Source: Candidatus Woesearchaeota archaeon (GTDB lineage Archaea; Nanobdellota; Nanobdellia; Woesearchaeales; UBA12501). From it: a DNA stretch of 64,000 bases. Both the position numbers and the translations under genes were made by a program. Location of the stretch: NCBI GenBank assembly GCA_030651375.1, contig JAUSFM010000009.1, forward strand, positions 65,345 to 129,344. The letters are read 5' to 3'. Of this stretch, positions 23,060 through 41,106 are shown in pieces. Below the pieces are notes generated by a model. It saw only the letters and a list, made by a program, of their open reading frames with translations. It had not been told where the DNA came from and did not search any database. Position 1 is the stretch's first letter, and the number at the start of each line of letters is the position of its first letter.

Positions 23060-23063
23060 GGTG

Positions 23064-24640: not shown

Positions 24641-24750
24641 CTTCCCTTTCAACATAAAAAATATAAAAAATTCATAAAAATTCATTCTTGAGTACTAACA
24701 AACCTTTTTATATCAATCTGCCTGTGTACTACTCACAAGGGGGTTGATTG

Positions 24751-26832
24751 ATGGCGAATAAGCATTTTCAGCGCATGGACAAAGTTCTTGGCCTCCCGCC
24801 TGCGCCGCATGGTGCACCTGCCAAAGAAAAAAATGCCAGCCATCACCATCCCGAACATACCTCTCCTGCTTCACCTACTGCAACGCATAGGCATGGTTTT
24901 CTCGCGCGATTCAAAAAGCACCCATCGCATCCCTCTATTCAAAACGCTCCTGCCGGTGCTTATCCGAGTGACTTCGCACAACAGGAGCGCGCTGACGTTG
25001 ACGAGCTGAAAAAGCACCAGATTGAGCTCGATCACCTCGCACTTCAACAGCAGGCCAGAGAACAAGCTCGAGAAGAGCAAGAGCCTACCGGCGCGGAAAA
25101 ATATCTTCTCAAGGAAAAAGAAAAACTGCTCAAAGAGCGGTTCACGCTTGAAGGCGACATTGTTGCGCTCACGAAACGTCGCGCCCAGCTTGTTGGCCAG
25201 ATGCGAGTCGGCATCACTGAAGAAGAAAAAAAAGCCCGAACAAAAATTGAAAGCTCCCTGCGCGGCCTCGCGAACGAGCGCGAACGGCTCCTCACCGTGG
25301 TCAAAAATCTCAAGCCGCAGGCTGATGAGCTCCGCCGGCAGATGTCACCTAGTTTTTTCACCATCGAAAAGCATGAAAAAGAACTCGCAGCGCGCGAAGA
25401 AAAAATATCGCTTGCTGACGCACGATTGAAAAAAATCAGCGATGAGCTCCGCCACCATGAATTTGAGCTCGGAAAAAAACAGGCAGGCCTTGCCCATGAA
25501 GAGCGCGAGCTCACTGAACAGCAGCGCGCGCTCAAGGAACGGCTTGCACAGGAAAGCCAGCGCGTTGCGCTCATGCTCGCGGAAAAAGAAGCGCTGCTCA
25601 AAAACAAGTACAAAATATGGGAGCAACAGATTGACCGGCGCGAGCACGCAATCGCCGGTGCCGAGCGAAACTTCAACAAGGAAAAAGGAAAACTCTACCT
25701 TGAATTTGAAAAAGAGCACGAAAAACTCGGCCACAGCCTCGAAGAAGAGCGCACCAAGCTCTACGGCGACTTGCAGCAGCAGAAAGACCATCTCAGCCGG
25801 GATCTCGTCGATCTGGAAACCAAAAAGCGACAGCTTGAGCAGGCAGTGCTCGAGAAAAAAGAGACCATTCACGATATCGCTGAAACTGAACGCCTGCTCA
25901 ATGAAAAAGAAGAGCATCTGCTCAACAAAATCCGGATGCTTGAGACGGACGAGCATCGCCTCCACTCTCGCGAGAATGAGATTATCGGCAAAATCAAACA
26001 GCTCGAGAGCGACCAGCAGCTGCTCGATGACAAGGAAAACGAGCTCATTGACGTGCTGAAAAAACTGGATATGCGTGAAGGCGAGCTGCGTAATCATGAG
26101 CGTATGCTGAATGTCAAGGGCAACGAACTCACGGCTCGGGAGCATGACATCCAGAAAAAAATGGACGAGGCACAAGAAAAGCTTGACGCCATCAAAACGA
26201 ATAATTCACTCAAGCTGAACACCGCCGAGCTCGAAAAGGCCGCCACTAAAATCGTCGGTGAAATTGAATCTCTCGCACACAAAAAAGAATCTCTCATCAA
26301 ACAGCAAACACTCCAGCACGACATTGAGGCGCTGCAAAAATCAAAAAAACTCATTGCAGCCGAACTTGAAAAAGAGCGGGGCGCGCTCGAGCAGGAGATC
26401 AACAAGCTCGTTGCCAAAGTTGCTGACATGGAACAGGTCTTTGTCGCTGACGACCGGCTCAAGCAGCGCCAGGACTTCATGGAACGGAAAGAAGATGCGC
26501 TTGAGCAGGAGCATGCCCACATTCAGGAGCAGCTCAACCAGCTTGAAACCAACAGCATAAACGCGGTTGCAGCATTGTCATCAGTTCAGCAGCAGAAAAA
26601 TACTGCAAAAGAGATTTTCGAGGCCGACTCGCGCGAAAAAGTTGAGATCTACGCAATGATTGAGCAGGCGCGCGACGCCATTGTCGCCGGCACCTTCGAT
26701 CTTGCCAAGCAAATCTACGCGGCGATTCAGGAAGCGTACAAAACATTCAACCTTGCTGAAGCAGACCGCCGGAAAATTTACTTTGATGTGGTTGAGCTCA
26801 AGACGGACATTGAGCTCGGCGCGCTCTGCTGA
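24751..26832 (+). CDS. Long coiled-coil protein
   Basis: About 550 aa of E/K/L/Q-rich heptad-like sequence with a His/Pro-rich N-terminus; no Walker motifs. Confidence 0.8.
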   Translation: MANKHFQRMDKVLGLPPAPHGAPAKEKNASHHHPEHTSPASPTATHRHGFLARFKKHPSHPSIQNAPAGAYPSDFAQQERADVDELKKHQIELDHLALQQQAREQAREEQEPTGAEKYLLKEKEKLLKERFTLEGDIVALTKRRAQLVGQMRVGITEEEKKARTKIESSLRGLANERERLLTVVKNLKPQADELRRQMSPSFFTIEKHEKELAAREEKISLADARLKKISDELRHHEFELGKKQAGLAHEERELTEQQRALKERLAQESQRVALMLAEKEALLKNKYKIWEQQIDRREHAIAGAERNFNKEKGKLYLEFEKEHEKLGHSLEEERTKLYGDLQQQKDHLSRDLVDLETKKRQLEQAVLEKKETIHDIAETERLLNEKEEHLLNKIRMLETDEHRLHSRENEIIGKIKQLESDQQLLDDKENELIDVLKKLDMREGELRNHERMLNVKGNELTAREHDIQKKMDEAQEKLDAIKTNNSLKLNTAELEKAATKIVGEIESLAHKKESLIKQQTLQHDIEALQKSKKLIAAELEKERGALEQEINKLVAKVADMEQVFVADDRLKQRQDFMERKEDALEQEHAHIQEQLNQLETNSINAVAALSSVQQQKNTAKEIFEADSREKVEIYAMIEQARDAIVAGTFDLAKQIYAAIQEAYKTFNLAEADRRKIYFDVVELKTDIELGALC

Positions 26833-26896
26833 TTTTTGTGTTTTTTTGTGCTCATTTTTCTTGTTGTACGCTCTATTGTCTCGATGTACATTCATC

Positions 26897-26952
26897 ATTT
26901 TGTTTTCTCGTTTTGTTTCTCGTTTTGTTTCTTGTTTTGTTTCTTGTTTTCT
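26897..26952 (+). repeat. 12-bp tandem repeat GTTTTGTTTCT(C/T) upstream of the parA-like gene
   Basis: Full units at 26910-26921, 26922-26933 and 26934-26945 with degenerate flanking copies. Confidence 0.8.
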
Positions 26953-27052
26953 ACAATCAAAATATTTATAAACCAGTGGCGAGTGTGATGTGTTGAAACC
27001 TGTATACACTTAAAAGAGAAAAAGAAAAAATCAGCCAAAAAGAGGGGATAGC

Positions 27053-27862
27053 ATGAGAAAAATCTGCATTATTAACCAAAAAGGCGGCGTGGCAAAAACA
27101 ACCACCGCTGTAAACCTCGGCGTTGGTCTTGCCAAGGAAGGAAAAAAAGTTCTCATTATCGACCTTGATGCGCAAGGAAACGTCGGCACCTGCCTGCCAG
27201 CAGAGTCAAAAAAAGACCTGTACGACTTTCTGGTTGAAAACGCCGACATCCGCGAGTGCATCTCCGGCGTCACCGAAAATCTCGACCTTATCAAAAGCAG
27301 GGAAACACTGGCAAAAGCCGAGCTCATTCTCGTGGGCGAAAGCTCCCGTGAAATGACACTTCGGAGAAAACTGCAAAACCTTGCAGGCTATGATTACGTG
27401 CTGCTTGACTGCCCGCCGAGCCTCGGCCTGCTGAACCAGAACGCCATGCTGTTTGCAACCGAAGCGCTTATTCCGGCATCCACCGACATTCTCGGGATTG
27501 ATGCGCTGCGAAAAATGCGCTTTATTGTTGACAAAATCAATGACGTGTTCGGCCACAGCCTGACCATCAGCAAGGTGGTTCCCACGCTCTACGATGTACG
27601 CAATAAAGTGTGCAATACCGTGCTGAAACAAATGCAGAGCGAGTTCTACGAGCTGGTCTCTGACCCGATTCGTGTCAATGCAACGCTCAAAGAGGCGCCG
27701 GCAGAGAAGAAGTCAATCTTCGACTACGCCCCAAACTCGCGCGGTGCTGAAGACTACCGCAAGCTCGTCAAGCAAGTATTGCGCGACGAGGAGAAATACG
27801 TCAAACTTGCGCGCTCTCCCGCGTCAATGCGGATGCAAGTGAAAGAAGCGGTTATTGGATAA
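27053..27862 (+). CDS. ParA/Soj family ATPase
   Basis: Deviant Walker A KGGVAKTTT, IDLDAQGN, DCPPSLG and IRVNATLKEAP motifs; GAGGGG RBS. Confidence 0.92.
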   Translation: MRKICIINQKGGVAKTTTAVNLGVGLAKEGKKVLIIDLDAQGNVGTCLPAESKKDLYDFLVENADIRECISGVTENLDLIKSRETLAKAELILVGESSREMTLRRKLQNLAGYDYVLLDCPPSLGLLNQNAMLFATEALIPASTDILGIDALRKMRFIVDKINDVFGHSLTISKVVPTLYDVRNKVCNTVLKQMQSEFYELVSDPIRVNATLKEAPAEKKSIFDYAPNSRGAEDYRKLVKQVLRDEEKYVKLARSPASMRMQVKEAVIG

Positions 27863-27951
27863 ATATGTTTTTTTATCTTTTTTTCTCTACTTCTTTTGTC
27901 TTTTAATTTTTTAGATATATTTTTATGCTTTTAGAATTAATTTTTTTTCAC

Positions 27952-28407
27952 TTATTGATCCGGCCCATAGTATCGCCGATTGCCCGGAAGCACCATGCTA
28001 TTGAGTCGGTGTTCGCCAACAGAGGTATATTCTTTTGTTGGGGTGGGTATCTTTTCCGGCTCGTCTCCCACGGTAAAACAGCCGCCATAGAAGCATTGGC
28101 AGGTGTCTGCGTAGGAGCAGGTGCAGCGCTGGTAGCAGCCGTACTTGGTTCTGAATCGATATTGTGACGGTGTTTCATCCATCAGCCGCTTGACTGCAAG
28201 CGGTGGCTGTTCGCTGACGAGATTTCCCGTCAGGCTCTGGCTTCCTCCTGCAGGAAGCTCGTTCGTGTATTCCACCAGCACATAGTTTGTTTGTGGTGTT
28301 TCATTGATTGACTGCGAGTATTGGTAGATGCCGCCCAGCGCAACTGCTGCGGTGATTAAGACTAACAGAAGGTCACGGTGGTCACTCATTCCTCTTTTTA
28401 TACTCAT
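27952..28407 (-). CDS. Membrane-anchored or secreted protein with Cys-rich motif
   Basis: N-terminal hydrophobic helix LLLVLITAAVALGGIY; CYQRCTCSYADTCQCFYGGC. Confidence 0.65.
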   Translation of the reverse strand: MSIKRGMSDHRDLLLVLITAAVALGGIYQYSQSINETPQTNYVLVEYTNELPAGGSQSLTGNLVSEQPPLAVKRLMDETPSQYRFRTKYGCYQRCTCSYADTCQCFYGGCFTVGDEPEKIPTPTKEYTSVGEHRLNSMVLPGNRRYYGPDQ

Positions 28408-28473
28408 AATGTGTGTTGGTGGCTTTTTTATTTAAATAGTTTGTGGATTGGTCATTCGAAATCTACTCATTCT

Positions 28474-29826
28474 CTATTTCTGGTACAAATCAGGATATTC
28501 TTTAACAAGCGCTTGGCGCATTTTTTCCTTGGCGCGGTTTTCGAGCTGCCTCGTTCGCTCACGGGTGATGCCCAACTGGTCTCCAATTGCCTCGAGTGTC
28601 ATTGGCTCTTCGCGGAGCAGGTGGCAGTCAACAATATATTTTTCGCGTTCGTCCAGTACATGAAGTACCCCGCGAATTGCCTGATTGGCAAATGGGGCGT
28701 TGGGAGTAATCATCTCTTCCGGGGTTGGAGCATTTGACGCAACCCTTGAATATAAATTCTTGTCGTCAGCTGTTAGGCTGTCAAGAGACGCATCACCATC
28801 TGCCAAGCGCTGCTGCATGCCTCTTACTGACTTTGGCGAAACGTTAAAGTGTGCAGCAATCTCTTCAGGTGTTGCTTCATGGTCTTCATATAATAATTCA
28901 GGCATACGGCTTGTTCCTACTTTTGGCAGCAGATAATATAATTTTCTTTGCACTTGGCTTGTTCCTATCTTCACCATTCTTCTGTTCGCTATGTTGTCAG
29001 CATAGATTTGTGCTTTTATCCAATGCACGGCATAGGTGATAAAATTCTTGCCTTTTTTAGGGTCATATTTCCGCGCGGCGCTCATGGCGCCCAAATAGCC
29101 ACTGCTCACTGATTCATCCCATGCTTGTTTGTTCGTACGAGGGTGTATGCCCATCTGATGTACGACCTGATAGACAAAGTGTACTGATGACTCAACCAGG
29201 CGCTTAACCGCTTCTTTTCCCTCTTCACTGTCCGGGCCGTACGCTTGTACCGTGTGGCCCCATTCATACTGTTGCTCTTTTAATGCCTGTCTATCTTCCA
29301 AAGGTAGTTTTTGTGCACGTTGAGGCATTGGTTTTTTCAATTTCTTAACCGGAAGCCGGACAATCTCTGCTTCCGGCGGCGTTTCATAAGGTGTCCTGTC
29401 AAATGCGGTCGTGATGAAACGTTCGAGAATAAAATCAAGTGAACTGACAGACACATGCTCATTTCGTACCTCAATCTCCCCTTTTTCTTTCAGATAGTGG
29501 AGTCTCTCTCTCACATTTGTCTCTTCGAGCTTCACGCCACCAATTTTTTGGAGTACGAGATCATCAAGCGGAATTTCAGTTGCAAAGTGTTCTGCTTTTG
29601 ATGGGTCTTCTGCAATCATCTGTGCGACAATTGAGCCGACAAAATAATAGGGCTCTTGAGAAAAAGAATACAGGGGAAATGCTCGGTCTGCATAGCGTTG
29701 GAGGCCAAGAGCAATAACTGTTTCTGTTGACATGGTATCAAGAAGTGGAAGTGCTTGCAGCTCTTTACGTAGATGAGGGGGAAGTTCGCTTGAACCCTGC
29801 TTTAAAAAAGGGAGCACCGTTGCCAT
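28474..29826 (-). CDS. RNA polymerase sigma-70 family factor (RpoH/sigma-32-like) fused to an unknown N-terminal domain
   Basis: Region 2 GYLGAMSAARKYDPKKGKNFITYAVHWIKAQI; RpoH-box-like VKIGTSQVQRKLYY; region 3 EEIAAHFNVS...DASLD; region 4 LDEREKYIV...TLEAIGDQLGITRERTRQLE. Confidence 0.9.
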   Translation of the reverse strand: MATVLPFLKQGSSELPPHLRKELQALPLLDTMSTETVIALGLQRYADRAFPLYSFSQEPYYFVGSIVAQMIAEDPSKAEHFATEIPLDDLVLQKIGGVKLEETNVRERLHYLKEKGEIEVRNEHVSVSSLDFILERFITTAFDRTPYETPPEAEIVRLPVKKLKKPMPQRAQKLPLEDRQALKEQQYEWGHTVQAYGPDSEEGKEAVKRLVESSVHFVYQVVHQMGIHPRTNKQAWDESVSSGYLGAMSAARKYDPKKGKNFITYAVHWIKAQIYADNIANRRMVKIGTSQVQRKLYYLLPKVGTSRMPELLYEDHEATPEEIAAHFNVSPKSVRGMQQRLADGDASLDSLTADDKNLYSRVASNAPTPEEMITPNAPFANQAIRGVLHVLDEREKYIVDCHLLREEPMTLEAIGDQLGITRERTRQLENRAKEKMRQALVKEYPDLYQK

Positions 29827-29849
29827 AAAGTTCTTGTGTGGTGTTTATT

Positions 29850-29860
29850 ATTTTAAAAAG
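29850..29860 (-). promoter_or_regulatory. Archaeal TATA-like box for the RpoH-like gene
   Basis: Minus strand CTTTTTAAAAT, about 30 nt before the ATG at 29826; same spacing as housekeeping genes in this window. Confidence 0.6.
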
Positions 29861-29894
29861 GTGTTGGTACTGATTGGCTAATCTCGTAATTTCA

Positions 29895-31193
29895 TTATTC
29901 AAAATCATCAGGATTCAAACAACGGCGAAGATTTACTAAGGCTGCCGAATGGAGTTGGCTGGCGCGAGATTCAGTGAAACCCAAAATGCGGCCGATCTCT
30001 TTTAAATTTAAATCTTCTTTGTAATACAATCTTAGAAAAATTCTCATATTTTGTTGTGTTTCCGGCCTACAGGGAACTCCTTCTGCAGTTGAAAAGGTAA
30101 TGCTATCCAACGCGCCCCACAGCATTGATTCTTCTTGGCGTAGCGCTGCCATCGTGTCAAGATAGACACTTTTTTCATCAGGTACTACTCGGGGAACATC
30201 AATATATTTTCCATTTTTATCTTTAGGCTTATCATCCAAACTCATAACCCTTGGTGCGCTCACTTGTGCTTCGTCATATTGTTCTTGTGTAATGCCGGCA
30301 CGCTCAAGAATCTGTTCGAGTGGAATATCCGTTGTTCCTGTTTCAAACAGCAATGCAGCGCGCGCATCTTCCACATCCTTGAGCCGTTCACGCACGCTGC
30401 GAGAAACCCCATCAAGGTGGCGTAAATAATCCAATATCGTGCCGCGGATGCGCATTTCTGCATACGGCCTGAAACCACCTTGTTTTGCATCAAATTTTTT
30501 TTTGGCGTCCAAAAGGCCGAGGTATCCTTCACTGATTAAATCATCAACCTCAACGCTGCGCGGCAAGCGTTGAGCAATGCGATATGCTAAACGTTTTACC
30601 AGCGGCATATACTCCGTCGCAAACGCTTCTTCTTCGCCATCGCGTATCTCTCTCCTTTTTTTCTCTTTTGTTTCTCTTGTTTCTTTCTTCGGCATTCCCA
30701 CTACTTTTTTTTCATATTCAACCGGCAGCCCATACGTTGCATACAGCACATCCCACAAGACAGCATTAACCAACTGCAGGGGAACATTCCCTTCCGGAAG
30801 AATGCCGGCTTCTGTCAGATACGCAAGCCGTTCGTCGACGGTGTTTTTGTTTAGTCCAACTCCTCCCAACTGGGTGACGGTAAATTCGCTGTGCGGTATG
30901 CCTGCGAGTGTATCGCCAGCTTGTTTTCGTAGCTCCGGATATTCCTGCAGTGCCGCAGCAATGACTGACGCGACAAAATACGTTGGCTCGCCGGAAAAAG
31001 AATACAGCGGAAAGCTTTTGTCGACTATTCTTTCCGGCGTGCCGCGCTGGAGCAATTCGGCTCTGGAATATGCCCTGAACATTCCTCCGACAGCGAGCTG
31101 ATACGCCGTTGCTGTCATAAATGTTTCTGCGAGCTGCTCCAGACTTCTATCTTGCTGCGGTGCAGGAAAGGGGAGAACGGTTGCGGCGGACAT
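29895..31193 (-). CDS. RNA polymerase sigma-70 family factor (FliA/WhiG/sigma-28-like) fused to an unknown N-terminal domain
   Basis: YMPLVKRLAYRIAQRLPRSVEVDDLISEGYLGLLDAKKKFD...YAEMRIRGTILDYLR...SRSVR; region 4 LYYKEDLNLKEIGRILGFTESRASQLH. Confidence 0.92.
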   Translation of the reverse strand: MSAATVLPFPAPQQDRSLEQLAETFMTATAYQLAVGGMFRAYSRAELLQRGTPERIVDKSFPLYSFSGEPTYFVASVIAAALQEYPELRKQAGDTLAGIPHSEFTVTQLGGVGLNKNTVDERLAYLTEAGILPEGNVPLQLVNAVLWDVLYATYGLPVEYEKKVVGMPKKETRETKEKKRREIRDGEEEAFATEYMPLVKRLAYRIAQRLPRSVEVDDLISEGYLGLLDAKKKFDAKQGGFRPYAEMRIRGTILDYLRHLDGVSRSVRERLKDVEDARAALLFETGTTDIPLEQILERAGITQEQYDEAQVSAPRVMSLDDKPKDKNGKYIDVPRVVPDEKSVYLDTMAALRQEESMLWGALDSITFSTAEGVPCRPETQQNMRIFLRLYYKEDLNLKEIGRILGFTESRASQLHSAALVNLRRCLNPDDFE

Positions 31194-31205
31194 GGCATCA
31201 CTCGT

Positions 31206-33026
31206 TTATTTTTCTAACTCAAAGAGCACTTCTTTCGGTGCAACCAGTTCTTTATCAGGTACGATTTCTCGGTCAAATGTAGAGTCTAACGCTTCTGATA
31301 CGGAATGTAATGGTGCAAAGCCTCCCGGCGATTGTTCTTCTTCCTTCTCGTCATCGCCCAAGAAGTCAATGTCCTCAATGGATCCATACGTTTTGTCTGT
31401 TTCAGAAACTATTTCTGGCCTACGCCCTGTTCTTTCTTTTGGCCTATACTGCTCATCACGTTCCCGATAGAATCTTCCAATGGGAGTTTCAGTATCCGCG
31501 CACTGCATTTCCTCAACGTGATACCCATGTTTCAGCATTGCAATGACTCCTGCTTCCAAATCCTCCCGCGTTATCAGCTCACCACTTTTTTTCGGTTGTA
31601 GGTATGCTGGTTTTTTTCCGGTGACTGCACCCAATCTATCAGTAATATCCTGCTCCGGCACGAGCGTGTACTTGGGCAACCGGTCAACCAACTCGCGCGA
31701 AACATACGGCATTCTTCTGACACCATACGATTCTTCATATTCCCGCACGAGATTCAATGCCAGTGCCGCCGGCAAAATTCTCATTTCATCAAGGTCAGGA
31801 AGGGGAATCTCACACACTTCCTGTACTCGCCGAGGATCAAAATATTCAACGCCATTAAATTCTATCGGCCTGCACCCGATATACAGCTCTGACAGCATTT
31901 TTCCGATATTTCTGCCGTGCATATCAAAGCGAGATTTTGCCGCACGATACATAAGATAGCTTGCCACTTCCTGCCCCGTTATCGGATAAAATGTTTCAAG
32001 TACTTGTCGGTATGCCTCAATAAAGTCTTTCTTTTTCAGTGTTCCGGCACTGCCTCCCATGGTTCGTAACCCACCATATCTTTTCAACAATTTCTGCATG
32101 CCATAGTTAGGAAAGCCGGGGTCAATGGAGTATTTTAATGCCGTCATGACCTCAAGGGTTTGGGTGTACGTTAATTGTTTCGGTGCCTCAGCAAGTATCT
32201 GTTTTGATGTTTTTCCTCCTTCGTCCAATTCTTTTTCAAACTCCTCTAACTCTTCAGGTGTCATCTCTGCAAGTTCGTGTTCAAATTCCCTGACAAGATT
32301 TACGCCATAACTTTTATGTTTTAATGTGTTGGGTGAACTCGTTGCTCCTATGTGATGATTTGTCGCTGGTTTTTTACGCTTGTACAGAGATTTATCAGGA
32401 ATGTCTTGTTTTAATTTTTTAAGCGCGCGTTCCAAGCTTCGTGACGGCGTGCCAAAGTCACGCGTGCGCAAAGTGACTTTTCTTTGTATGATAAAGGCAT
32501 CGTCACTATTCCCTGTTTCTTCTTCTCCTTCTGGTTTTCGGTATGCTTCAATGGGCATAATATCCGCAGCCGGATGCTCGCTTTCATAGGCTGGTGGATT
32601 TCCAAATGTCATTGCAATGAAATCTCGGAGTACAAAATCTATGGTGCTTATCGAGACATTTTGGTTAGGAAGCATTGCAATCACACCATTTTCTCTCAAA
32701 TAGTCAAGCCTCTCTCTCTCATTTGCCTCTTCCAGCCGCACACCGCCAATATTCTGCAGCACGAGACGTTCCAGTGGAATTTCAGTTGAAAATAAGGGTG
32801 CCTGTGCAGGATCGTCCACCAGTATCTGCGCAACAATGGAGCCGACAAAATATTCTGGCTCTTGAGAAAAAGAATGCAGTGGAAATGCGCGCTCTGCATA
32901 GCGTTGCAGCCCAAGACTTTGCACTGTTTCTTGTGACAGCCGGTCAAGGAGACTAAATTCTTGCAGCTCTCGTAGAGTGCGCGGAGAAATTTCTTCAGGT
33001 TTGCTGAATTGAAGAACATCGGCCAT
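31206..33026 (-). CDS. Hypothetical protein sharing the N-terminal domain of the two sigma fusions
   Basis: LGLQRYAERAFPLHSFSQEPEYFVGSIVAQ matches LGLQRYADRAFPLYSFSQEPYYFVGSIVAQ of 28474-29826; GGTGA RBS before ATG 33026. Confidence 0.8.
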   Translation of the reverse strand: MADVLQFSKPEEISPRTLRELQEFSLLDRLSQETVQSLGLQRYAERAFPLHSFSQEPEYFVGSIVAQILVDDPAQAPLFSTEIPLERLVLQNIGGVRLEEANERERLDYLRENGVIAMLPNQNVSISTIDFVLRDFIAMTFGNPPAYESEHPAADIMPIEAYRKPEGEEETGNSDDAFIIQRKVTLRTRDFGTPSRSLERALKKLKQDIPDKSLYKRKKPATNHHIGATSSPNTLKHKSYGVNLVREFEHELAEMTPEELEEFEKELDEGGKTSKQILAEAPKQLTYTQTLEVMTALKYSIDPGFPNYGMQKLLKRYGGLRTMGGSAGTLKKKDFIEAYRQVLETFYPITGQEVASYLMYRAAKSRFDMHGRNIGKMLSELYIGCRPIEFNGVEYFDPRRVQEVCEIPLPDLDEMRILPAALALNLVREYEESYGVRRMPYVSRELVDRLPKYTLVPEQDITDRLGAVTGKKPAYLQPKKSGELITREDLEAGVIAMLKHGYHVEEMQCADTETPIGRFYRERDEQYRPKERTGRRPEIVSETDKTYGSIEDIDFLGDDEKEEEQSPGGFAPLHSVSEALDSTFDREIVPDKELVAPKEVLFELEK

Positions 33027-33059
33027 GCCTTTCACCGTTATTTTCTTCTTTTAAAAATA

Positions 33060-36000
33060 TTACTCAAGCAATCTCGGCGCCATGGCTTCAACATCGTTGA
33101 CATGCGCCAATCCGAAAAGCGTTTTTCCTGCCTTTCGCAGTTGAGTTTCAAGTGCATGATATCCTGCATCAGCAGGGACACCGTGTTGTGTCAGCACCTT
33201 CATGGTTTGGTTCTCATCAAGGAATCCAACCTGTTTCATCAATTCTGCCCGCGAATCATCGTAATGCATTGCCTGCGCCCATCCTGCTGCCAGCTTCCAA
33301 TATGCTTTTGAAAATACGTCATACCCTATGAGTTGTTGATCGCCCAACTTTTCCGTTGCCATATACTCCCGGATGTATTTTTCCAACTGTAGGTCTGGTT
33401 TTTCTCCATCAAGCAACAGCGCAGGCATGATGCGGTTCACAGGAATTTTTGTTCCATCCGATTTTTTCCATGAAAACGGCTCATACAAAATCGCCGCTGC
33501 AACAAAAGGAGAAACATGATACCCTTCTCCAGTCACTGCTTTTCGCATAGTGTCAGGGAATTGGCGTATGGCCGCGTTGATGCGCCCGGGTGTTACTTGC
33601 GGAGGCATCAATTCAGCAAGATCAGAGGTGAGCACAATATCTTCAACGCCGTAGGCGTGCTCTGCGTCATTGCCTTTCAGGACAATCTGGTCGGCTGCAA
33701 ATCTGCCTGATCTTCTCATGTACTCAAAGAGCCGCCGTGAAAATTCCGGCTGATATGCGGCCACAAGCAACGCGACGGCTTCTTCTTCATTCTTCGGTGC
33801 AGTGCTCAGGCGATACTGGTACACACCATCTTCGGCGCGCGGTGTTATTCGTGCGCCGAGAGAGCCGGATCTTCGTTCTGGCTGTACTAACACCGGTGTT
33901 TCTTCTCTTTTTGAAGGTGTTGTTCCTGCGGGAGCTGGTGCAGTATATCCTGTTGTTTCTGCCGCCGATGCTGGTGCAAGTGGTGCCTGTTCTCCTGCAG
34001 GCGATGCAACCTTTTCTTCCAGCGAGGGTATCACCACTTTTGTTCCCTTGGGAAGCCCGACAACATCTTCAACCGTTGTGCGTCCCGTCAATGATTCCAA
34101 TGCATAATCAAACGCTTTGAAATAGACTTCACGTTGGCGCGCCTTGATGTCTGATGCCGTTGGAGTGCCTGATTCAGGCGTAAAAAGATTTGTTTTTGAA
34201 TACACCTGTAGAAGTTCTGGGCCAAGAATAGCGTACAGTGCCGCATGGTTTGGCGGTGCTAATGGCTCTGGCTTAAGGTCAACTTCTGCCCATAATTTAA
34301 TTTTCAATGCCGTGCTTGCGGCGATGCCTAATCCTGATGCTTTTAATCTATGGGTATTGACAAACTCGTGCAGTTTTCCAACAGCTTTTTTCGTGACTTG
34401 AGCTGCAACAACATATTCCACAACCATGTTTGGCACATACAAATGTTGGTCATCAAATCGTATCCGGCGCTGTGCTGTATTATAGTATCCTTTCTCCAGA
34501 ATTTTATGCCGTAACGCCGTTGCGAGGTACGCCATTGCGTATGTGTCGTCGAATGGATGGGTTGATGATGAAGTGGCAGGAGCGGGAACTTCTGGGCGTG
34601 CTGAAGCTGGTGAAGCAGGAGCAGGAACCGAAACAAGTACGTCATCAATTGATGCAGCTATTGGTGTTGGCGCAGGAGCTGGCGATGGTGCCGGAGGAGG
34701 AACTGGTATTGGTGAGAGAGCTGGAGATGGCGCAGGGGCAGGTCGAGTGGCTGGAGAATCTACATTCGCGGATTCTGCCGCAACATAGTCACCCAACAAT
34801 GTGCCGCCTGCTTTCATCGTGTCGAAGGCGAGGTTGAATGATTCACGGAATCGCTGGCGGACAGGCGTGGCTGGTTTAGCGAATTTTTCAACAGCGGCAA
34901 AGTATTTTTGTCCTTGTAATCTTTGGATGGCTTCAAATGGCACACCAAAAAATCCAGCTATTTCTACATCCAAATATTTCTTTACATCTGTAAGATCACT
35001 CAGATGGATGGCAAGAATATCCTCCATCATTACTCCTGCAGGTGCATCATGATGATGGCGCAGCAATGGATGCTCTTTTCCTTTCCATTGTTGAAACGCC
35101 CCATCGGTTATTCTGGTTTTTAATAGTTCACGAACTTTGTAATACCGGGGAACATCCCCACTTTTAATCGGCTTGTGGCCGGGAAGCGTAATCATATCTG
35201 TCGTCGGATCATACAGCTTTTGATAGCGTATTCCCCTTTCTATTCCCTGCGCAAGATAGCGGAGTGGGTCGGTGAGAAGTAAATCATCGGACAGAACGAA
35301 TTTTCTTCCGGCAGATGCTGCTGAAGCGGCAGGATGTGGTGGTGCGGGCGCATCCGGTGCATCCGGTTCAACCACCGTATCAATCGTTGCGGCACGAGCT
35401 GCTATTCTCTGCTCTTCTGCTTCTGATGGTGCTTCACCAGCCACTGCGCCGCCGGTAAGCTCTTGATACCATACTGACTGGTGCTCCCGCACAATCGGAA
35501 ACAGTTGAGGAAGGAGATTATTGATGCTTGGCCAGTCAAGGTCAACGGTCTTTGCTTTTTTCAGTAAACCATCTTCCACTGCGCGATGTGCAAGGGCAGA
35601 ATCAATGCCGAGAGATGCTTCCAAATCAGCGTAGGTTCTGATGCGAACATCGCCCGCTGATTTGTAAAGCCCAAAGAATTTGACATCAAGGGGAGAGAAT
35701 TTTTGATGGAGGGAAAAGGGAACATGGCCAAAAGCGTCTGCATAGACTTCGTTAACATAGCGTTGGTATGACGTATAGCGAGCGTTATATCCATCGCTTC
35801 CTTCTCGTGCTTGGTGTGGGGTTACTGCAAGCAAAGGAATATCGGCAGGGGATGATGGGGTCAGTGTTTGGCTGTGCGCAACAAGTTGTTGGTGCTCGGC
35901 ATCGTAGCCAAGCATAATTCCTTCAGCAGTGTACTGGCCGGTTTGCACGAGGTGGCTAAACACAGCCTGCGCAAGTTCTTCGAGCAGGGGACGTGAAGGA

Positions 36001-37169
36001 ACAGAACGGGGAGAGGGAGGTGGAGCAGGAGTTACAGGAGCTGGTTCAACCGCTGGTACAGATTCAGGCACGCGTGGCGCTGGTTCAGCCACGCGTGGTG
36101 GCACTTGTTCTGGTGTTTCACTTTCATATTCTTTTACCGCCTTTTCCAATGCTGTGTCAAACACTTCAAAAAATACTTTTTCCTGCGCGGTTTTAAACCG
36201 GCTTGCATCTCTTGGCTTGTATTCGTGTTTCGGATTAAATACACCTGAATTATGTGCGTTGATTATTTCATCTTCAGAAGCACCAAATAAATCTGCAAGT
36301 TCATCGAGTGATAACGATTGTGTTGGTGTTTTACCAGGAGCACTTTCGCGCCATAATTTTACTTTGAGCACGTTTCGAGCTTCTGCACCGTCGTCTTTTC
36401 GTAATCCTTTACTATCCATATACTTGTGTGCTGTTCCACCTGTTGTAAATCCTGCTAAACTTTTTGCAATGCCATATCCAACAATATGGTCCGAATCATA
36501 TCTTATTCCTTCTGCAAATTTTATTTGTTTTCGTTCACCGTCATAATAGTCTTTGCGTATTCGTTCGTATAACCGTTCGACAAGAATGTCCTGCATATCT
36601 TCAGCTGTTGTATCTTTTGGCGGCGTCGGTTCTTTGTGAAGGGGTGCCGGTGCAATTGGTTCAGGTTCACGTTCACGAATAGGCGCTGGCACCGGTACAA
36701 CTATCTCGGGTGGTGCTGCCCTAGCCGGAGCTGCTGAAGCTGCTGCACGCTCCTCTCGTTCCGCCAAACGATTTCGTGTGCGTTCTGCCAGAGAATCCGT
36801 GCTCAATTCAATAACTTCAATCTGGCGATCGGATTGTTGAACATACGTGAGAAACAACGGTTGAGAAGAATCGCGCGCTTCAACATAGTGTGCTGCCTCT
36901 GAAAAAACACCGAGCGGAATGCCATTTGCTGCAACACCGACATCTTTTCCAACTGATTTTACTTCAATGGCAGTTCGTGAGATGAAACCATCAAGGCCGA
37001 CGATGCCGGTCGATCCGTGGTATGTTTTGTCAGGTGTTCCGTGCAGTTGAATTTCGAGTGGCCTGCCAAGTAAGGCAGCAGTAACTTCGTCAATGGTTGT
37101 TGTGGCACTCGTTGCAGAATCAAGCGGTATAATGCCTGCCCTTCCTACCTTAAACCAGTGTTCAGCCAT
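33060..37169 (-). CDS. Large (1369 aa) multidomain protein with diverged internal repeats and Pro/Ala linkers
   Basis: Uninterrupted 4.1-kb ORF with repeated blocks (e.g. LKVKLWRE / LKIKLWAE and VFFEVFDTALE / VYFKAFDYALE) separated by PAPAP-type linkers. Confidence 0.8.
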   Translation of the reverse strand: MAEHWFKVGRAGIIPLDSATSATTTIDEVTAALLGRPLEIQLHGTPDKTYHGSTGIVGLDGFISRTAIEVKSVGKDVGVAANGIPLGVFSEAAHYVEARDSSQPLFLTYVQQSDRQIEVIELSTDSLAERTRNRLAEREERAAASAAPARAAPPEIVVPVPAPIREREPEPIAPAPLHKEPTPPKDTTAEDMQDILVERLYERIRKDYYDGERKQIKFAEGIRYDSDHIVGYGIAKSLAGFTTGGTAHKYMDSKGLRKDDGAEARNVLKVKLWRESAPGKTPTQSLSLDELADLFGASEDEIINAHNSGVFNPKHEYKPRDASRFKTAQEKVFFEVFDTALEKAVKEYESETPEQVPPRVAEPAPRVPESVPAVEPAPVTPAPPPSPRSVPSRPLLEELAQAVFSHLVQTGQYTAEGIMLGYDAEHQQLVAHSQTLTPSSPADIPLLAVTPHQAREGSDGYNARYTSYQRYVNEVYADAFGHVPFSLHQKFSPLDVKFFGLYKSAGDVRIRTYADLEASLGIDSALAHRAVEDGLLKKAKTVDLDWPSINNLLPQLFPIVREHQSVWYQELTGGAVAGEAPSEAEEQRIAARAATIDTVVEPDAPDAPAPPHPAASAASAGRKFVLSDDLLLTDPLRYLAQGIERGIRYQKLYDPTTDMITLPGHKPIKSGDVPRYYKVRELLKTRITDGAFQQWKGKEHPLLRHHHDAPAGVMMEDILAIHLSDLTDVKKYLDVEIAGFFGVPFEAIQRLQGQKYFAAVEKFAKPATPVRQRFRESFNLAFDTMKAGGTLLGDYVAAESANVDSPATRPAPAPSPALSPIPVPPPAPSPAPAPTPIAASIDDVLVSVPAPASPASARPEVPAPATSSSTHPFDDTYAMAYLATALRHKILEKGYYNTAQRRIRFDDQHLYVPNMVVEYVVAAQVTKKAVGKLHEFVNTHRLKASGLGIAASTALKIKLWAEVDLKPEPLAPPNHAALYAILGPELLQVYSKTNLFTPESGTPTASDIKARQREVYFKAFDYALESLTGRTTVEDVVGLPKGTKVVIPSLEEKVASPAGEQAPLAPASAAETTGYTAPAPAGTTPSKREETPVLVQPERRSGSLGARITPRAEDGVYQYRLSTAPKNEEEAVALLVAAYQPEFSRRLFEYMRRSGRFAADQIVLKGNDAEHAYGVEDIVLTSDLAELMPPQVTPGRINAAIRQFPDTMRKAVTGEGYHVSPFVAAAILYEPFSWKKSDGTKIPVNRIMPALLLDGEKPDLQLEKYIREYMATEKLGDQQLIGYDVFSKAYWKLAAGWAQAMHYDDSRAELMKQVGFLDENQTMKVLTQHGVPADAGYHALETQLRKAGKTLFGLAHVNDVEAMAPRLLE

Positions 37170-37251
37170 AAGTCCCCAGCAAGCATGTGGAGAAGAAGTG
37201 TTTAATAAGGCTTTATATGGTGGAGAATATATGAATAACCATCCTTAAAAA

Positions 37252-38304
37252 TCAGGCATGAATCGTTTTTCCCTCAATCTCTATTTTCTTCCCCATCATC
37301 TGCTCCACCACAAATACATTCGTCTTGGTGTGGTTCGTTATCTCGCTCGTTTTTATTTCCCCGCCAAGCAATCCAAGAAGCGGAATCAAATTGTCAGCAA
37401 GGTGCTGGTCAACCGCAGCGCCGCTCTGAATTTCAGCAAGCAGTTTCTGCGCGCAGTCACTTCCCACTTCCTCTGCCCGTTTTCCTTTTTCACCCAGCAC
37501 GTCAGCGCCCAGCCGAATCGGATTTTTGGCATCAATATCATTTTTGTCTTTGGAGAAAATCGCCCAGAGCGTGATGCCGCAGCCGTCGCTTGGCGTATTC
37601 ACATATTCTGCTGTTATATTTATCGGGCATGACACTTTCTGACCCAGCGCGACTTTTGCACCCCGTGCCATGCGCTCGGAAACCTGCGCGTCTTGCAAGG
37701 TTGCTGAAGCGTGCGCAATTCCTTTGATGTGGATGAGGTGGTGTTGTTCTGTAAGCGCAAACGGCACACTTTTTTTCCCCTCGTCAAGCGTGGTGTGCGA
37801 ATCAATCTTTATATCAACTCTGCCGGCGCCTTTTGGATAATAGCCGCGCTGCTCAAGCTTGCACATGATGTCTGCATATCTCCGAAATTGCGGCACAATA
37901 ATTTCGCAGAAATAATCCCAGCTCGGGCTCCATGCAACATCAGTGCCGCCGGTTATTTTGAGGCGGAATTTTTCGCCGGAAAAGGCCAGCGGCAGAAGAA
38001 GGGATTGCATCAGCAAGGTAATTGAGCCGGCCGTGCCGATGTCCAATGACAGCGTGCGGCCTTTTAGCTTTCCCGGAACGTAGTTAATCGTGGTTGAGCC
38101 GAGTACGGCGTCATCACCATATGCATTGCACAGTTGTTCCATGGCTTTGATTGCCGTGAGGTGCTGCGCCTTCAAGCCGGGTTCGGCACGGCCCGCACGA
38201 ATTTTATCAACGGTAACTGCTTTGCCCATGAGCGTTGAAATGCCGATTGCGGTTCGCACGATTTGCCCACCGCCTTCAAGATACGAGCCATCGATGGTGT
38301 TCAT
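37252..38304 (-). CDS. rtcA: RNA 3'-terminal phosphate cyclase
   Basis: IDGSYLEGGGQIVRTA, PGLKAQH, TAGSITL, GGTDV, RGYYPKG and DQHLAD (catalytic His). Confidence 0.95.
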   Translation of the reverse strand: MNTIDGSYLEGGGQIVRTAIGISTLMGKAVTVDKIRAGRAEPGLKAQHLTAIKAMEQLCNAYGDDAVLGSTTINYVPGKLKGRTLSLDIGTAGSITLLMQSLLLPLAFSGEKFRLKITGGTDVAWSPSWDYFCEIIVPQFRRYADIMCKLEQRGYYPKGAGRVDIKIDSHTTLDEGKKSVPFALTEQHHLIHIKGIAHASATLQDAQVSERMARGAKVALGQKVSCPINITAEYVNTPSDGCGITLWAIFSKDKNDIDAKNPIRLGADVLGEKGKRAEEVGSDCAQKLLAEIQSGAAVDQHLADNLIPLLGLLGGEIKTSEITNHTKTNVFVVEQMMGKKIEIEGKTIHA

Positions 38305-38378
38305 ACCATTCGCTAACAAGGATGTTTTTATAAATTTTAGGAAAAACTATTTATATGCCACAATGTATTGTTTGTGCT

Positions 38379-38789
38379 ATGGCATCAAAAAGAGGGAAAA
38401 GAAGGGGAACAAAGAAGCCGGCGAAACGAACAACACGGCACGCGGCAAAGAAGGCGACAAAACGAACGCAAAAACGCGTCGTTAAAAAACCCGCGAAAAA
38501 ATCAAAATCATCTCCAAAAAAATCAAAATCAACACAAACGACACCAAAGCAAAAAATTGTTGGCCTTGTCACTCATTTCTATCCGCACATCAGCGTCGGG
38601 ATTGTTGAAGTCAAAGCGCCGCTCAAGATTGGTGATTCTATAACCATATCCGGCCACGGCAAGAGCTTCAAGCAAAAAATAACATCGATGCAGATTGAGC
38701 ACGAATCAATCAAAACCGCGCGGAAAGGCGATTTTATTGGGATTAAAACGCTCCGGCCGGTAAAGGAGAAGGATGTTGTGATGAAATAA
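38379..38789 (+). CDS. Translation-factor-like beta-barrel protein with Lys/Arg-rich N-terminal tail
   Basis: VGLVTHFYPHISVGIV...LKIGDSITISGH...SMQIEH...GDFIGIK; basic histone-H1-like N-terminus; TTTATATG 29 nt upstream. Confidence 0.75.
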   Translation: MASKRGKRRGTKKPAKRTTRHAAKKATKRTQKRVVKKPAKKSKSSPKKSKSTQTTPKQKIVGLVTHFYPHISVGIVEVKAPLKIGDSITISGHGKSFKQKITSMQIEHESIKTARKGDFIGIKTLRPVKEKDVVMK

Positions 38790-38794
38790 TCTTT

Positions 38795-39715
38795 TTATTC
38801 TTGCTTCTTAAACCATTCCACCGTCTTTTTCAGCCCATCTTTGAATGGGATTTCCGCGTGCCAGTCAAGCACCTTCTTCGCTTTTTCACTATTCAAAAAG
38901 CTGTGCCGAATATCACCCGGTCGTTCTTGGCTATGTGCCGTTGTTCCTTTTCCCACAATTTCCTTCAACATTGTTGCCAAGTGATTTACGCTTGTCTGCG
39001 CGCCGGTGCCAATGTTAAACACATCATTCTCCCCTTTGGTCAATGCAAGCACATTCGCCGCTACAATATCATCAACAAAAATATAGTCACGCGTCTGTTC
39101 GCCATCCCCGAAAATGGTGCACGGCTTTCCTGCCAACATAGCGCGAATAAAGAGCGGCACCACACCAGCTTCGCCGCCATCTTGGTGCGGCCCGTACACG
39201 TTCGCATACCGCAGAATCACAAAGGGGATTTTGTACAAATTCTGGTAACAGCGCAGGTACAATTCACTCGTCATCTTGCTGGCGCCGTACGGTGAGAGTT
39301 GGAGGAGCGCATCTTGTTCATTCAGCCCGTTTTTTCCCGGCTCTTTGTCACCGTACACCGCTGCTGATGAGGAAAAAATAATTCTTTTAACACCATTTTT
39401 TCTGGAACATTCAAGCACGTTAATGAGCCCGAGCACATTTATTTCATAATCTTTCACTGGGTCGCGCACTGAAGCCTCGGCGCTTGCCTGCGCGGCGTGA
39501 TGGTTCACCACATCTGGCTTTTCTTTTTCAAAAATGCCAGTAAGTTGGGCGGCATTGCGGATGTCCGCGTGATAGAAGCGCATTCCCGTGGGCACGCGTT
39601 GTTTTTTTCCGGTGCTCAAGTCATCAACTATAGCAACATCGTGCCCTGCTGCTGCGTAGGCCTGCGCGATATGGCTGCCAATAAATCCAGCGCCTCCGGT
39701 AATAAGAATTTTCAT
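38795..39715 (-). CDS. NAD-dependent epimerase/dehydratase (UDP-glucose 4-epimerase-like)
   Basis: TGGAGFIG, SSSAAVYG, YGASK, RYANVYGP and GDGEQTRDY motifs. Confidence 0.92.
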   Translation of the reverse strand: MKILITGGAGFIGSHIAQAYAAAGHDVAIVDDLSTGKKQRVPTGMRFYHADIRNAAQLTGIFEKEKPDVVNHHAAQASAEASVRDPVKDYEINVLGLINVLECSRKNGVKRIIFSSSAAVYGDKEPGKNGLNEQDALLQLSPYGASKMTSELYLRCYQNLYKIPFVILRYANVYGPHQDGGEAGVVPLFIRAMLAGKPCTIFGDGEQTRDYIFVDDIVAANVLALTKGENDVFNIGTGAQTSVNHLATMLKEIVGKGTTAHSQERPGDIRHSFLNSEKAKKVLDWHAEIPFKDGLKKTVEWFKKQE

Positions 39716-39748
39716 AATGAAACCTTACGATGGTGAAGTTTTCGGTGG

Positions 39749-39931
39749 TTAGCGCCGCTTTTTCCGCTGTAGTCCGGTAATCTGTGCAAGTTTGGTAAAT
39801 AATTTTGATGCATGTGACGCCTCGCCCATAAATGCTTTGTTCTGCTGTTCGAGCTGTTTTTTTGTCGGGAGTTCCGCATCTTCCTGCTCAAGTTCCTGCA
39901 ATTCTTTTTTTGCAAGGGAAGGAATCTTCAT
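39749..39931 (-). CDS. small hypothetical protein
   Basis: Fills the gap between co-oriented genes; start uncertain. Confidence 0.4.
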   Translation of the reverse strand: MKIPSLAKKELQELEQEDAELPTKKQLEQQNKAFMGEASHASKLFTKLAQITGLQRKKRR

Positions 39932-39944
39932 TGCTGAATGCCGT

Positions 39945-40787
39945 TCAAGACTGCTTTTTCGCCTGTTTTTCATGTCTGCCCTCTTTTTCTTTTTCCTCTT
40001 TGGTATCTTTAGTGTTTAGAATGATGATATTACCCCTGCCTTTTTTAATTTTTCTTATTTTTCCTGCGGTTTCAAGCTCGGTGAGGACGAGGCTGATTTT
40101 TCCCTCTGAAAGTGGCACCTGCTTGCGGAGCTCTTTTTGCGTGGTACGGCCGTCTTGTTCCTTGATAAATTCCATGACTTGCTGTGCCACTGCGTCTTCT
40201 TCTTTTTTTATTTCATTGTCTTCATCGTTTTCGGTGCTTGTTTCTTCTGTTTCATTTTCATTATTTCCCTCATTTTCACTACTTACTTTTTTCTTTTTCC
40301 GTTCCGGACTGTTCATAAACTTATAAAAAACATAAATAACTACAAGCACAATGATTCCCGCAACACCAAAAAGGGCGTACGTGGTAAACCGCTTCTCTTC
40401 GATAAAGATGTTGTCCACATCAAGCGCGCTTTCAGCGAGAATATCATCTTCTGCGGCGAAGCTCGGAAGGAGGAACAGGTCAAACACATACGATCCGTCT
40501 TCCTTGACCACGACACGCTCTTCTGTTGTCAGGAGGGATGCATTTTCTTTGTACTGCGCGCGGATAATATACTCACCCTTGTCAACAGTAAACGCGTAGG
40601 TGCCATCGGTTGAAACCATGCGCTGCTTGGGGCTGGTGCTTATCTCGGCAACGGCTTTTTCAAGTTTTTTGAGGTCAAGATTGTAAATTGTGCCGTGGAT
40701 AAGTGCCGCAGCGCTTACCATCTGAAGCGATATAAGCATAGCAAGAAGCACAAAAATTCCTATGGCGGTTATTCGCTTGGCTACCAT
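39945..40787 (-). CDS. Membrane-anchored winged-HTH regulator with extracytoplasmic beta domain
   Basis: Signal peptide, beta-rich domain, TM segment YALFGVAGIIVLVVIYVFY, C-terminal TQKELRKQVPLSEGKISLVLTELETAGKIRKIKKGRGNII. Confidence 0.85.
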   Translation of the reverse strand: MVAKRITAIGIFVLLAMLISLQMVSAAALIHGTIYNLDLKKLEKAVAEISTSPKQRMVSTDGTYAFTVDKGEYIIRAQYKENASLLTTEERVVVKEDGSYVFDLFLLPSFAAEDDILAESALDVDNIFIEEKRFTTYALFGVAGIIVLVVIYVFYKFMNSPERKKKKVSSENEGNNENETEETSTENDEDNEIKKEEDAVAQQVMEFIKEQDGRTTQKELRKQVPLSEGKISLVLTELETAGKIRKIKKGRGNIIILNTKDTKEEKEKEGRHEKQAKKQS

Positions 40788-40919
40788 TTTTACCCAAGGG
40801 GCTGGTCGAAGAGGGGGTATAAAAGCATTATGGTTTTCGAGCAAAATACGTCGATAATGTGGGCTTTAATCGGGTACACATAGTCAAAAAAAGCCGTAAA
40901 ACAGCGTATTTTCAATTTT

Positions 40920-41000
40920 AAAGCTTCAGTAAAGTTTTATTCGTTTCATGCACGTTGAATAAAGTTTTATCATGAAGCTTTTGGCAAGTATCTTTATAAG
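40920..41000 (+). promoter_or_regulatory. Direct and inverted repeats upstream of a TATA box (candidate regulator sites)
   Basis: TAAAGTTTTAT at 40930-40940 and 40960-40970; AAAGCTTCA (40920-40928) / TGAAGCTTT (40973-40981); CTTTATAAG at 40992-41000. Confidence 0.55.
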
Positions 41001-41106
41001 CACTTTCGCCTCATATTTCCTTGGTGGTTGTTGCAGGGGCGCAATGGCCGTTGCATCACCGACCAAAAACATTCAAAAACTATTCAACCAAAACTGGAGG
41101 GATACC

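Follow-up and report, generated by a model that had tools for sequence, protein, structure and literature searches.

The gene cluster considered here lies on the minus strand of a 64,000-nucleotide (nt) stretch of DNA from a Candidatus Woesearchaeota archaeon (GenBank assembly GCA_030651375.1, contig JAUSFM010000009.1, positions 65,345 to 129,344), hereafter the window, whose numbering is used throughout. Two of its four genes encode bacterial-type sigma-70 factors, of different groups, and both of these are fused to the same N-terminal domain, which also heads a third protein of the cluster and is found in related genomes on further sigma factors and on a sigma-54 activator. Bacterial gene-switching proteins so carried on one shared domain suggest action on the genes of a bacterial host. 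The genes, with the copies of the domain within them and the basis of each assignment (ORF, open reading frame; aa, amino acids), are:

37252-38319: rtcA, immediately upstream of the cluster
33060-37169, minus strand: gene for a 1369-aa modular protein (ORF and translation)
31206-33026, minus strand: gene for a 606-aa protein with the shared N-terminal domain (ORF and translation)
32577-33026, minus strand: shared domain, copy 1, of the 606-aa protein (sequence comparison)
29895-31193, minus strand: 432-aa FliA/WhiG-like (group 3) sigma fusion (ORF, Pfam and NCBIfam)
30714-31193, minus strand: shared domain, copy 2, of the FliA fusion (sequence comparison)
28474-29826, minus strand: 450-aa RpoH-derived fusion, a predicted pseudo-sigma (ORF, Pfam and NCBIfam)
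29383-29826, minus strand: shared domain, copy 3, of the RpoH fusion, the copy that was modelled (AlphaFold2 model and sequence)

The four genes are co-oriented, with rtcA upstream and gaps of 33, 12 and 68 nt between them, just as a first-pass annotation made from the letters alone had described (an in-frame GTG at 33035 offers the 606-aa gene an alternative 609-aa product). Mis-assembly of a bacterial fragment, the danger raised there, and contamination were rejected. A single contig of 50,986 nt, at depth 13.6 in run X1 (possibly the source run), covers 22000-41900 without any difference; fragments of a related strain are present in three other groundwater runs, and two separate assemblies of that strain (90–92% nucleotide identity) keep the FliA–RpoH order, one of them including also the end of the 606-aa gene. 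The strain contigs diverge by 6–13% in the cluster, compared with about 1–5% in the listed flank pieces. The genome of 1.30 Mb (scored 100% complete, with 0.91% contamination; it is labelled G000 below, related genomes being G001, G007, G008, G013 etc., and contigs, loci and proteins having C, L and P numbers) has archaeal RpoA′, RpoB and TFB over their cut-offs and a TBP-like ORF, and homologs with names are Woesearchaeota or Nanoarchaeia. GC across the cluster is genome-like at 0.46–0.49, against 0.37–0.40 in the AT-rich islets elsewhere in the window, and the absence of an AT-rich shift, earlier judged by eye, is borne out. GC at third codon positions is mildly low (0.37–0.43, the 6th–17th percentile of 620 long ORFs).

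Bacterial rpoA, rpoB and rpoC all stay below cut-off in G000, which answers an earlier query about a bacterial polymerase in this genome. In the clamp of the archaeal enzyme the positions of β′ R275, R281 and E295 are occupied by I, E and L, and there is no flap-tip helix (the sigma–polymerase interface residues are those of PMC10216364). Judged from its sequence, the resident polymerase is predicted to be without sigma docking sites, and the sigmas to be unable to dock on it.

By Pfam, the 432-aa and the 450-aa protein each have sigma regions 2 and 4. The best NCBIfam model is FliA/WhiG (TIGR02479) for the former, at E 3e-49 and 167.8 bits against an equivalog cut-off of 189.6, and RpoH (TIGR02392) for the latter, at E 2e-42 and also below the equivalog cut-off; the earlier assignment to two different groups stands. 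The 432-aa protein has the features of group 3 (sigma2 and sigma4 domains, no region 1.2) and resembles bacterial FliA/WhiG (sigma-28; PDB 9wsf, 6pmi) in the conservation of regions 2.2, 2.4 and 4.2, where 10/10, 9/11 and 17/18 invariant residues are kept. Also present are the FliA-type promoter residues R74, D81, R84 and R91 and the ESR..Q of region 4.2 (contact residues of P. aeruginosa FliA are from PMC12784957). D43 is kept in 12/12 archaeal FliA-like rows, and among 33 sigma-like rows of the order D403 is kept in 30 and E407 in 26. The FliA fusion keeps both its polymerase-docking and its promoter-reading residues and is predicted to be docking-competent. It is unlike bacterial FliA/WhiG in its N-terminal 160-aa fusion, its divergent region 3 and its sub-cut-off TIGR02479 score, and in having no bacterial core in its own cell with which to form a holoenzyme. 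The gene is intact and under selection. The ratio of nonsynonymous to synonymous substitution rates (dN/dS) is 0.25 for the whole, 0.12 for its N-terminal domain and 0.7 for region 3, where a stretch of about 30 aa differs between strains (region 3.2 is hypervariable between them). With a dN/dS of 0.23 over the N-terminal 146 codons of the RpoH gene as well, selection is purifying and not relaxed, as the first-pass annotation had allowed that it might be.

The 450-aa protein keeps 8/9 of the RpoH box, 8/8 of region 3 and 14/14 of region 4.2, as well as region 2.4, and it shares with bacterial RpoH (sigma-32; PDB 8hkc) H107/W108, T128, L253 and E265/R266/R268 (sigma-32 recognition and interface residues are from PMC10216364). 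It departs from bacterial RpoH in its N-terminal fusion, in an eroded region 1.2 and in the residues by which sigma2 docks on the β′ clamp helices (D77, E81, I84, M87), which are not preserved as a set. All of 117 bacterial-type homologs have R59, D77, Q80 and E81; in their place the 450-aa protein has H/E/S/S, P0032 N/T/S/A and P0033 N/I/S/A. Of the residues with a conservation of 90% or more in bacteria, the 450-aa protein retains 8/24 in regions 1.2–2.2 versus 44/50 of those concerned with promoter reading (p 3e-6); the other two members of its clade keep 7/24 and 7/24 versus 40/50 and 42/50 (Fisher p 3e-6 to 6e-5 for the three). As the first background had been chosen by similarity to the query, the count was repeated against four backgrounds, which gave p 2e-4 to 2e-3, and with a control, in which the 450-aa protein has 10/31 docking-region and 43/58 promoter-region residues compared with 22–25/31 and 43–48/58 in 13 sister rows. 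By these counts the protein is a predicted pseudo-sigma, its docking face lost and its promoter reading kept. The claim that both sigmas retain regions 2, 3 and 4 is true of regions 2.4, 3 and 4.2, but not of regions 1.2–2.2 of the RpoH-like protein.

In a tree of 41 selected rows, in which long branches are flagged, the 450-aa protein, P0032 and P0033 form a clade (100/100) that is sister (99/96) to a bacterial sigma-32 subfamily, P0034–P0046, whose 275–281-aa members are its nearest RpoH relatives. Named RpoH proteins around the clade are from Syntrophales, Desulfomonilaceae and Deltaproteobacteria, and the nearest named relatives of the FliA fusion are FliA of Bdellovibrionales and Geobacteraceae, at about 40% identity. 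The donors sought are probably deltaproteobacterial for RpoH and Bdellovibrionales or Geobacteraceae for FliA. That two sigmas were separately captured onto a common module, as had been supposed, is upheld by their distinct groups and by the bearing of sigmas of four groups on that module.

The module is a domain of about 150 aa that heads three of the four cluster proteins. Its presence on both sigmas, already noticed, is confirmed, and the 606-aa protein, for which it had not been mentioned, has it too, being 55.6% identical there to the RpoH fusion and 38% identical to the FliA one; there is no further copy among the ORFs of G000. A profile search over 1.84 billion representatives gave 25 matches and an indexed search another 5, of which P0030 (4110 aa, with NOMO repeats) was dropped as a spurious match of 40 residues, leaving 29 proteins. 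These are 21 sigmas, one sigma-54 activator, three proteins of the 606-aa type, one in which modules of the 606-aa protein are combined with those of the 1369-aa one, and three fragments. The sigmas are 11 FliA-like, five ECF (extracytoplasmic function), two RpoD-like and three RpoH- or group-2-like, assigned by NCBIfam for five and by eye for the rest. The proposed search for the domain across genomes has thus brought out sigmas of four groups, and the four carriers with names are all archaeal, of Woesearchaeota type, though there may be a bacterial one among the others. The domain is found in 5/17 genomes of the family and 2/401 of the order, both belonging to that family. Scans of viral contigs and of genome-contig loci found nothing, but were insensitive, the genome scan having missed known carriers. 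In most carriers the domain is N-terminal; in P0029 and P0019 it is C-terminal, the latter (from G007) being the fusion to the sigma-54 activator. In this occurrence at either end of varied cargo it is like the shared translocation domain of secreted effector families.

The model of copy 3 (predicted local distance difference test, pLDDT, 82.4; predicted template modelling score 0.72) has two α/β units, the second resembling the helix-turn-helix (HTH) of MerR. The top structural match is the MerR-type CvkR (VIA Z 5.2, root mean square deviation 3.2 over 58 aa), and MerR-type N-terminal domains match residues 82–148 at Z 5.2, 5.1 and 4.8, middling scores within the range of common arrangements. 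An excisionase matches residues 29–76 weakly, at Z 3.6. In fold the second half, and more weakly the first, may recall MerR/excisionase winged HTH proteins (CvkR, Rv1828, CarA, CbpM, GIsul2 Xis), from which the domain differs in being net acidic, in having no sequence-family match and in that its binding of DNA is doubtful. Because it is net acidic in 24/26 aligned rows, the domain probably descends from an HTH fold but serves for contact with proteins and not with DNA. Foldseek gave no match for it at E<=0.001, its two halves show no detectable sequence repeat (probability 2%), and it has no detectable homology to the C-terminal (C) module of the 1369-aa protein, the sole match being in sigma region 4. 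A V/I-V/L-x-F/L motif near the N-terminus is present in 12/23 domain proteins versus 10/784 own ORFs, the pattern having been derived from the same proteins. It recurs at the starts 29826, 31193 and 33026, and also in P0029, where the domain is C-terminal, and is possibly a separate signal. It may resemble a ClpX-binding motif; the ClpX zinc-binding domain was not found in the genome.

The two remaining proteins of the cluster are built of parts that turn up elsewhere. The 606-aa protein consists of the shared domain, a basic/acidic linker and a conserved C-terminal region of about 240 aa of no known family. It has orthologs in P0018 and P0025 (G001) at 37–42% identity, and neither a Pfam match nor a usable ESM Atlas match. 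The 1369-aa protein, with no Pfam or PHROG match, is a string of modules joined by Pro/Ala linkers: N (aa about 15–135), the duplicates M1 and M4 (about 190–350 and 880–1045; E 1e-11 for the one against the other), M2, M3 and the C module of about 250 aa, a model of which (pLDDT 82) has no clear fold match. Pfam, NCBIfam, PHROGs, ESM Atlas and Foldseek give no family or fold name to the C module, to the C-terminal region of the 606-aa protein or to the shared domain. Homologs of the 1369-aa protein are in G001, G007 and G008 (3/16 other family genomes), after the sigma-54 activator-domain fusion in G007 and after the FliA-like gene in G008. In P0032 and P0033, the closest RpoH-like relatives, the C module stands N-terminally where the cluster's sigmas have the shared domain, and in G001 it is the end of a GHKL-ATPase that precedes the 606-aa ortholog near another sigma-54 activator [at L053:9707-18067 (G001:C4) the activator, the ATPase/C-module fusion and the ortholog are all inside 8 kb]. 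A FliA of G001 has a C-terminal tail that by eye is like a module of the 1369-aa protein, a likeness that a hidden Markov model search did not recover. In G013 two tandem genes have the shared domain on RpoD-like and RpoH-like sigmas. The parts of the cluster recur and recombine, while its exact four-gene order is found only in this species and the close strain.

At L040:6131-9137 (G001:C9) the FliA-like fusion has as neighbours two genes that by eye are like those for isocitrate lyase and malate synthase, which would not be expected in DPANN. In another family, at G055:C3 (L041:6361-17854), three paralogs with a different N-terminal domain, of about 115 aa, are directly upstream of four tandem sigma-like genes; that domain has no detectable relation to the shared one (score 12.9, within shuffles).

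Sigma-70 genes as such are no novelty in these archaea. Castelle et al. (2021, PMC8204110) report them as prevalent in Woesearchaeota, without anti-sigma, with an unclear role and with mis-binning excluded. Those of the cluster, whose contig is archaeal and whose genome is of Woesearchaeota type, are like these DPANN genes (fam00359) in being bacterial-type and resident in Woesearchaeota, and may belong to fam00359 itself. Sigma region 2 is in 102/301 genomes of the order (the 301, over which the tallies and 2×2 tables for sigmas and lytic transglycosylases were made, include the unpublished G198, G128, G259, G147, G137, G287 and G224, on which nothing else depends). The phenomenon is therefore published and common, and what had been put forward as an undescribed system is new in its architecture, i.e. 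the shared domain and the shuffling of modules onto the same cargo. Compared with section 7 of that paper, the groups, fusions, shared domain, predicted pseudo-sigma, sigma-54 activators and proposed host-directed role are described here only. In the published literature searched, with its poor coverage of subscription journals, neither the shared domain nor the shuffled kit nor the pseudo-sigma was found described. G000 has four sigmas: the FliA-like and RpoH-like ones of the cluster, a 740-aa RpoD-like protein (C16) and a 195-aa ECF sigma (C13). The RpoD-like protein, at G000:C16:235780-239304 (L043), has an unplaced N-terminus and a C-terminal Xre-type HTH and is followed by a 414-aa protein. 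The ECF gene is between hisS and RNA polymerase genes, syntenically in G000 (C13, about 68.1–68.7 kb; L003, L042) and G001 (C9, L040:15357-16091).

Parts possibly suited to dealings with bacteria are also found beyond the sigmas. Sigma-54 activator domains (E<=1e-20) are in 17/301 order genomes, and sigma-54 itself is over cut-off in 0/301 of the same genomes. Among the 15 of 19 activator loci examined, the exact GAFTGA is present in 9, and 14 are sensor-less, starting at the AAA+ domain. Several of the sensor-less activators (L059–L076, L053:15761-18067) are among archaeal genes. Their co-occurrence with sigmas (p 0.29) or with SLT (lytic transglycosylase) genes (p 0.81) is non-significant. 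G000 has three SLT matches over cut-off and, beside an SLT gene, a 792-aa class A penicillin-binding protein with transpeptidase motifs by eye, a pair repeated in G001, a genome of the same genus. At G000:C16, about 116–121 kb (L079, L088), and G001:C21 (L089) the gene for the latter (PF00912 E 1e-38) is divergent from an SLT gene with a twin-arginine-like start; PF00912 is in 3/17 family genomes. Further SLT-like proteins are at G000:C3 about 43 kb (L080), C3 about 140.7 kb (L078) and C16 about 47 kb (L081), one of them being the C-terminal domain of a large membrane protein amid surface-protein-like genes. Upstream of 1200 of the archaeon's own genes, promoter-like motifs for sigma-28, -32, -70 and -54 number 19, 10, 14 and 5, versus shuffle means of 15.6, 9.4, 19.6 and 2.9, and are not enriched. 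The bacterial consensus for each was used.

The genes are intact, under selection and modularly shuffled, with particular surfaces kept and others lost. On the reading tentatively preferred, they belong to a kit peculiar to the lineage, in which transcription parts captured from bacteria (sigma-70 groups 1, 3 and 4; sigma-54 activators without a sensor) have been shuffled onto a few archaeal-only modules and aimed at a bacterial partner. Such a host-directed role is favoured by docking residues that are kept though the organism's own polymerase is predicted to be without docking sites, by activators present where sigma-54 is not, and by the enzymes acting on peptidoglycan; in its favour count also the unenriched bacterial promoter motifs, the bacteria named as relatives of the sigmas and the greater divergence of strains within the cluster. 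The archaeon would express the proteins from its own TATA promoters, and after cell-wall contact they would enter the cytoplasm of a bacterium, host or prey, that probably is from one of the deltaproteobacterial donor groups. There the FliA fusion could dock on the host core polymerase and redirect or titrate it, and the RpoH-derived protein, not docking through region 2 but still reading sigma-32 promoters, could serve as a blocker of the host heat-shock regulon. The acidic shared domain would be a protein-contact handle (a delivery, chaperone or assembly tag), and the 606-aa and 1369-aa proteins scaffold or DNA-binding partners. Phage-encoded sigma factors (PMC9429907) would work similarly, in that a parasite has host-type sigmas; unlike them, those of the cluster are carried by a cell, from a different domain of life, they would be delivered in protein form, and the surroundings showed nothing of phage. 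Bacteria-directed predation or antagonism by Woesearchaeota has been proposed by Vigneron et al. (2022, PMC9723730) and likewise in a 2025 peptidoglycan-hydrolase paper (PMC12352652); a preprint (10.1101/2023.02.24.529834) has it that all cultivated DPANN require archaeal hosts. No cross-domain transcriptional effector system of this kind was found in the published literature searched. A bolder version, in which the family are parasites of bacteria that deliver a tagged sigma cocktail, a promoter-blocking pseudo-sigma and sigma-54 activators to rewire motility, stress and housekeeping transcription, is less probable.

Several observations weigh against a host-directed role. Loss of core docking in the RpoH clade is equally expected of a protein repurposed inside the archaeon, and the region 2.2 residues of the FliA fusion may be kept for folding. 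The accessory modules resemble HTH folds (HTH_17/MerR_1 matches in P0006), as expected of regulators of own DNA, and the ECF sigma adjoins polymerase genes in G000 and G001, as the G008 FliA fusion immediately precedes the polymerase operon. A route of delivery was not identified, by eye the proteins show no signal peptide, and the cargo of the shared domain is without enzyme toxins, unlike that of a generic secretion tag. SLT genes are common in the order (167/301) and not associated with sigmas (54/102 versus 113/199, p 0.54), and a few of the 17 activator matches may be bacterial contigs in bins (e.g. L063). Nearly as likely as host-directed modulators are regulators for home use: the captured sigma-2/3/4 and Fis domains would be sequence-specific DNA-binding units on the archaeon's own chromosome, with HTH-like modules supplying affinity and the docking face decaying, RpoH first and FliA not yet. 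Such cis regulators would account for the selective docking loss with promoter reading kept in all three RpoH-clade members, which is robust to background, for the MerR/Xis-like folds of the accessory modules, and for the closeness of sigma genes to the polymerase operon in G000, G001 and G008; free sigma-32, moreover, needs core to bind DNA (PMC10216364). They fit less well with the acidity of the shared domain, the lack of enrichment of cognate promoter motifs in the genome, the retention of GAFTGA and docking residues in divergent members without a partner in the cell, and the opposite erosion in other members of the order, where by eye docking is kept and promoter residues are lost (e.g. 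L031). The first-pass annotation had posed host effector and own DNA-binding regulator as alternatives. A FliA fusion with its docking residues whole speaks for the first, as do the activators and the peptidoglycan enzymes, and the second predicts the docking loss of RpoH; both can hold, for different members. Failure to bind bacterial core, once offered as a refutation, would not refute a host-directed role for the RpoH-like protein, since docking loss also fits a repressor-type effector.

Other uses are less probable. As decoys, which is improbable, the sigma parts would titrate regulators of bacterial type (the anti-sigma FlgM, DnaK/DnaJ, FtsH), or sit on the promoters of bacterial, plasmid or phage DNA that enters the cell, with no transcription driven. 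The RpoH box is indeed kept (8/9) despite the docking loss, DPANN encode DnaK–DnaJ–GrpE (PMC8204110), and the shared domain has weak fold matches to CbpM and DafA, which bind J-domains and have the MerR fold (Z 4.7, 3.9), but a Z below 8 may reflect merely a common arrangement, and the invariant −35 recognition helix (14/14) and GAFTGA would be left unexplained. That the sigmas provide an alternative basal initiation with the archaeal polymerase is very unlikely: their genes are near the polymerase operon in three genomes, but the clamp is without R275/R281/E295 and the flap-tip helix, and TFB over cut-off and a TBP-like ORF are present. An artefact, or a decaying, functionless transfer, is scarcely credible and already largely refuted. 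The somewhat low third-position GC and the patchy distribution (5/17 family genomes) would suit it; against it are the single spanning contig, the same order in the related strain, dN/dS of 0.12–0.25 and the domain in 29 proteins.

Were the proteins to act in a bacterium, archaeal manipulation of bacterial transcription would be new; were they to act at home, the conversion of sigma factors to polymerase-independent DNA-binding regulators would also be new. The locus sets a predicted docking-competent FliA fusion beside a seemingly naturally docking-defective RpoH, with a small foldable shared domain, and the donor groups of the sigmas nominate a candidate bacterial host. Which hosts Woesearchaeota have, and what their sigma-70 genes are for, can thus be put to direct test.

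TATA-like boxes had been claimed before the genes starting at 29826, 33026 and 37169, and they are there:

37201-37218, minus strand: two TATA-like boxes upstream of the 1369-aa gene (sequence pattern)
33049-33057, minus strand: TATA-like box 23–31 nt upstream of the 606-aa gene (pattern)
29851-29859, minus strand: TATA-like box 25–33 nt upstream of the RpoH-like gene (pattern)

They are not distinctive, as the same loose pattern precedes 327/620 long ORFs; with it, no box was found upstream of the FliA-like gene. Of the archaeal genes cited for the window, tfs (47890-48210) and an nmd3-like ORF (46191-47360) were found by motif, and aEF-1beta was not found in what was a crude motif search. 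Directly downstream of the cluster, at 27952-28407, is a gene preceded by a TATA-like box; its 151-aa product, Cys-rich and predicted to be a membrane protein, has no family match. At 24748-27862, convergent with the cluster, a 694-aa coiled-coil protein is followed by a ParA-like ATPase (AAA_31 E 2.5e-46).

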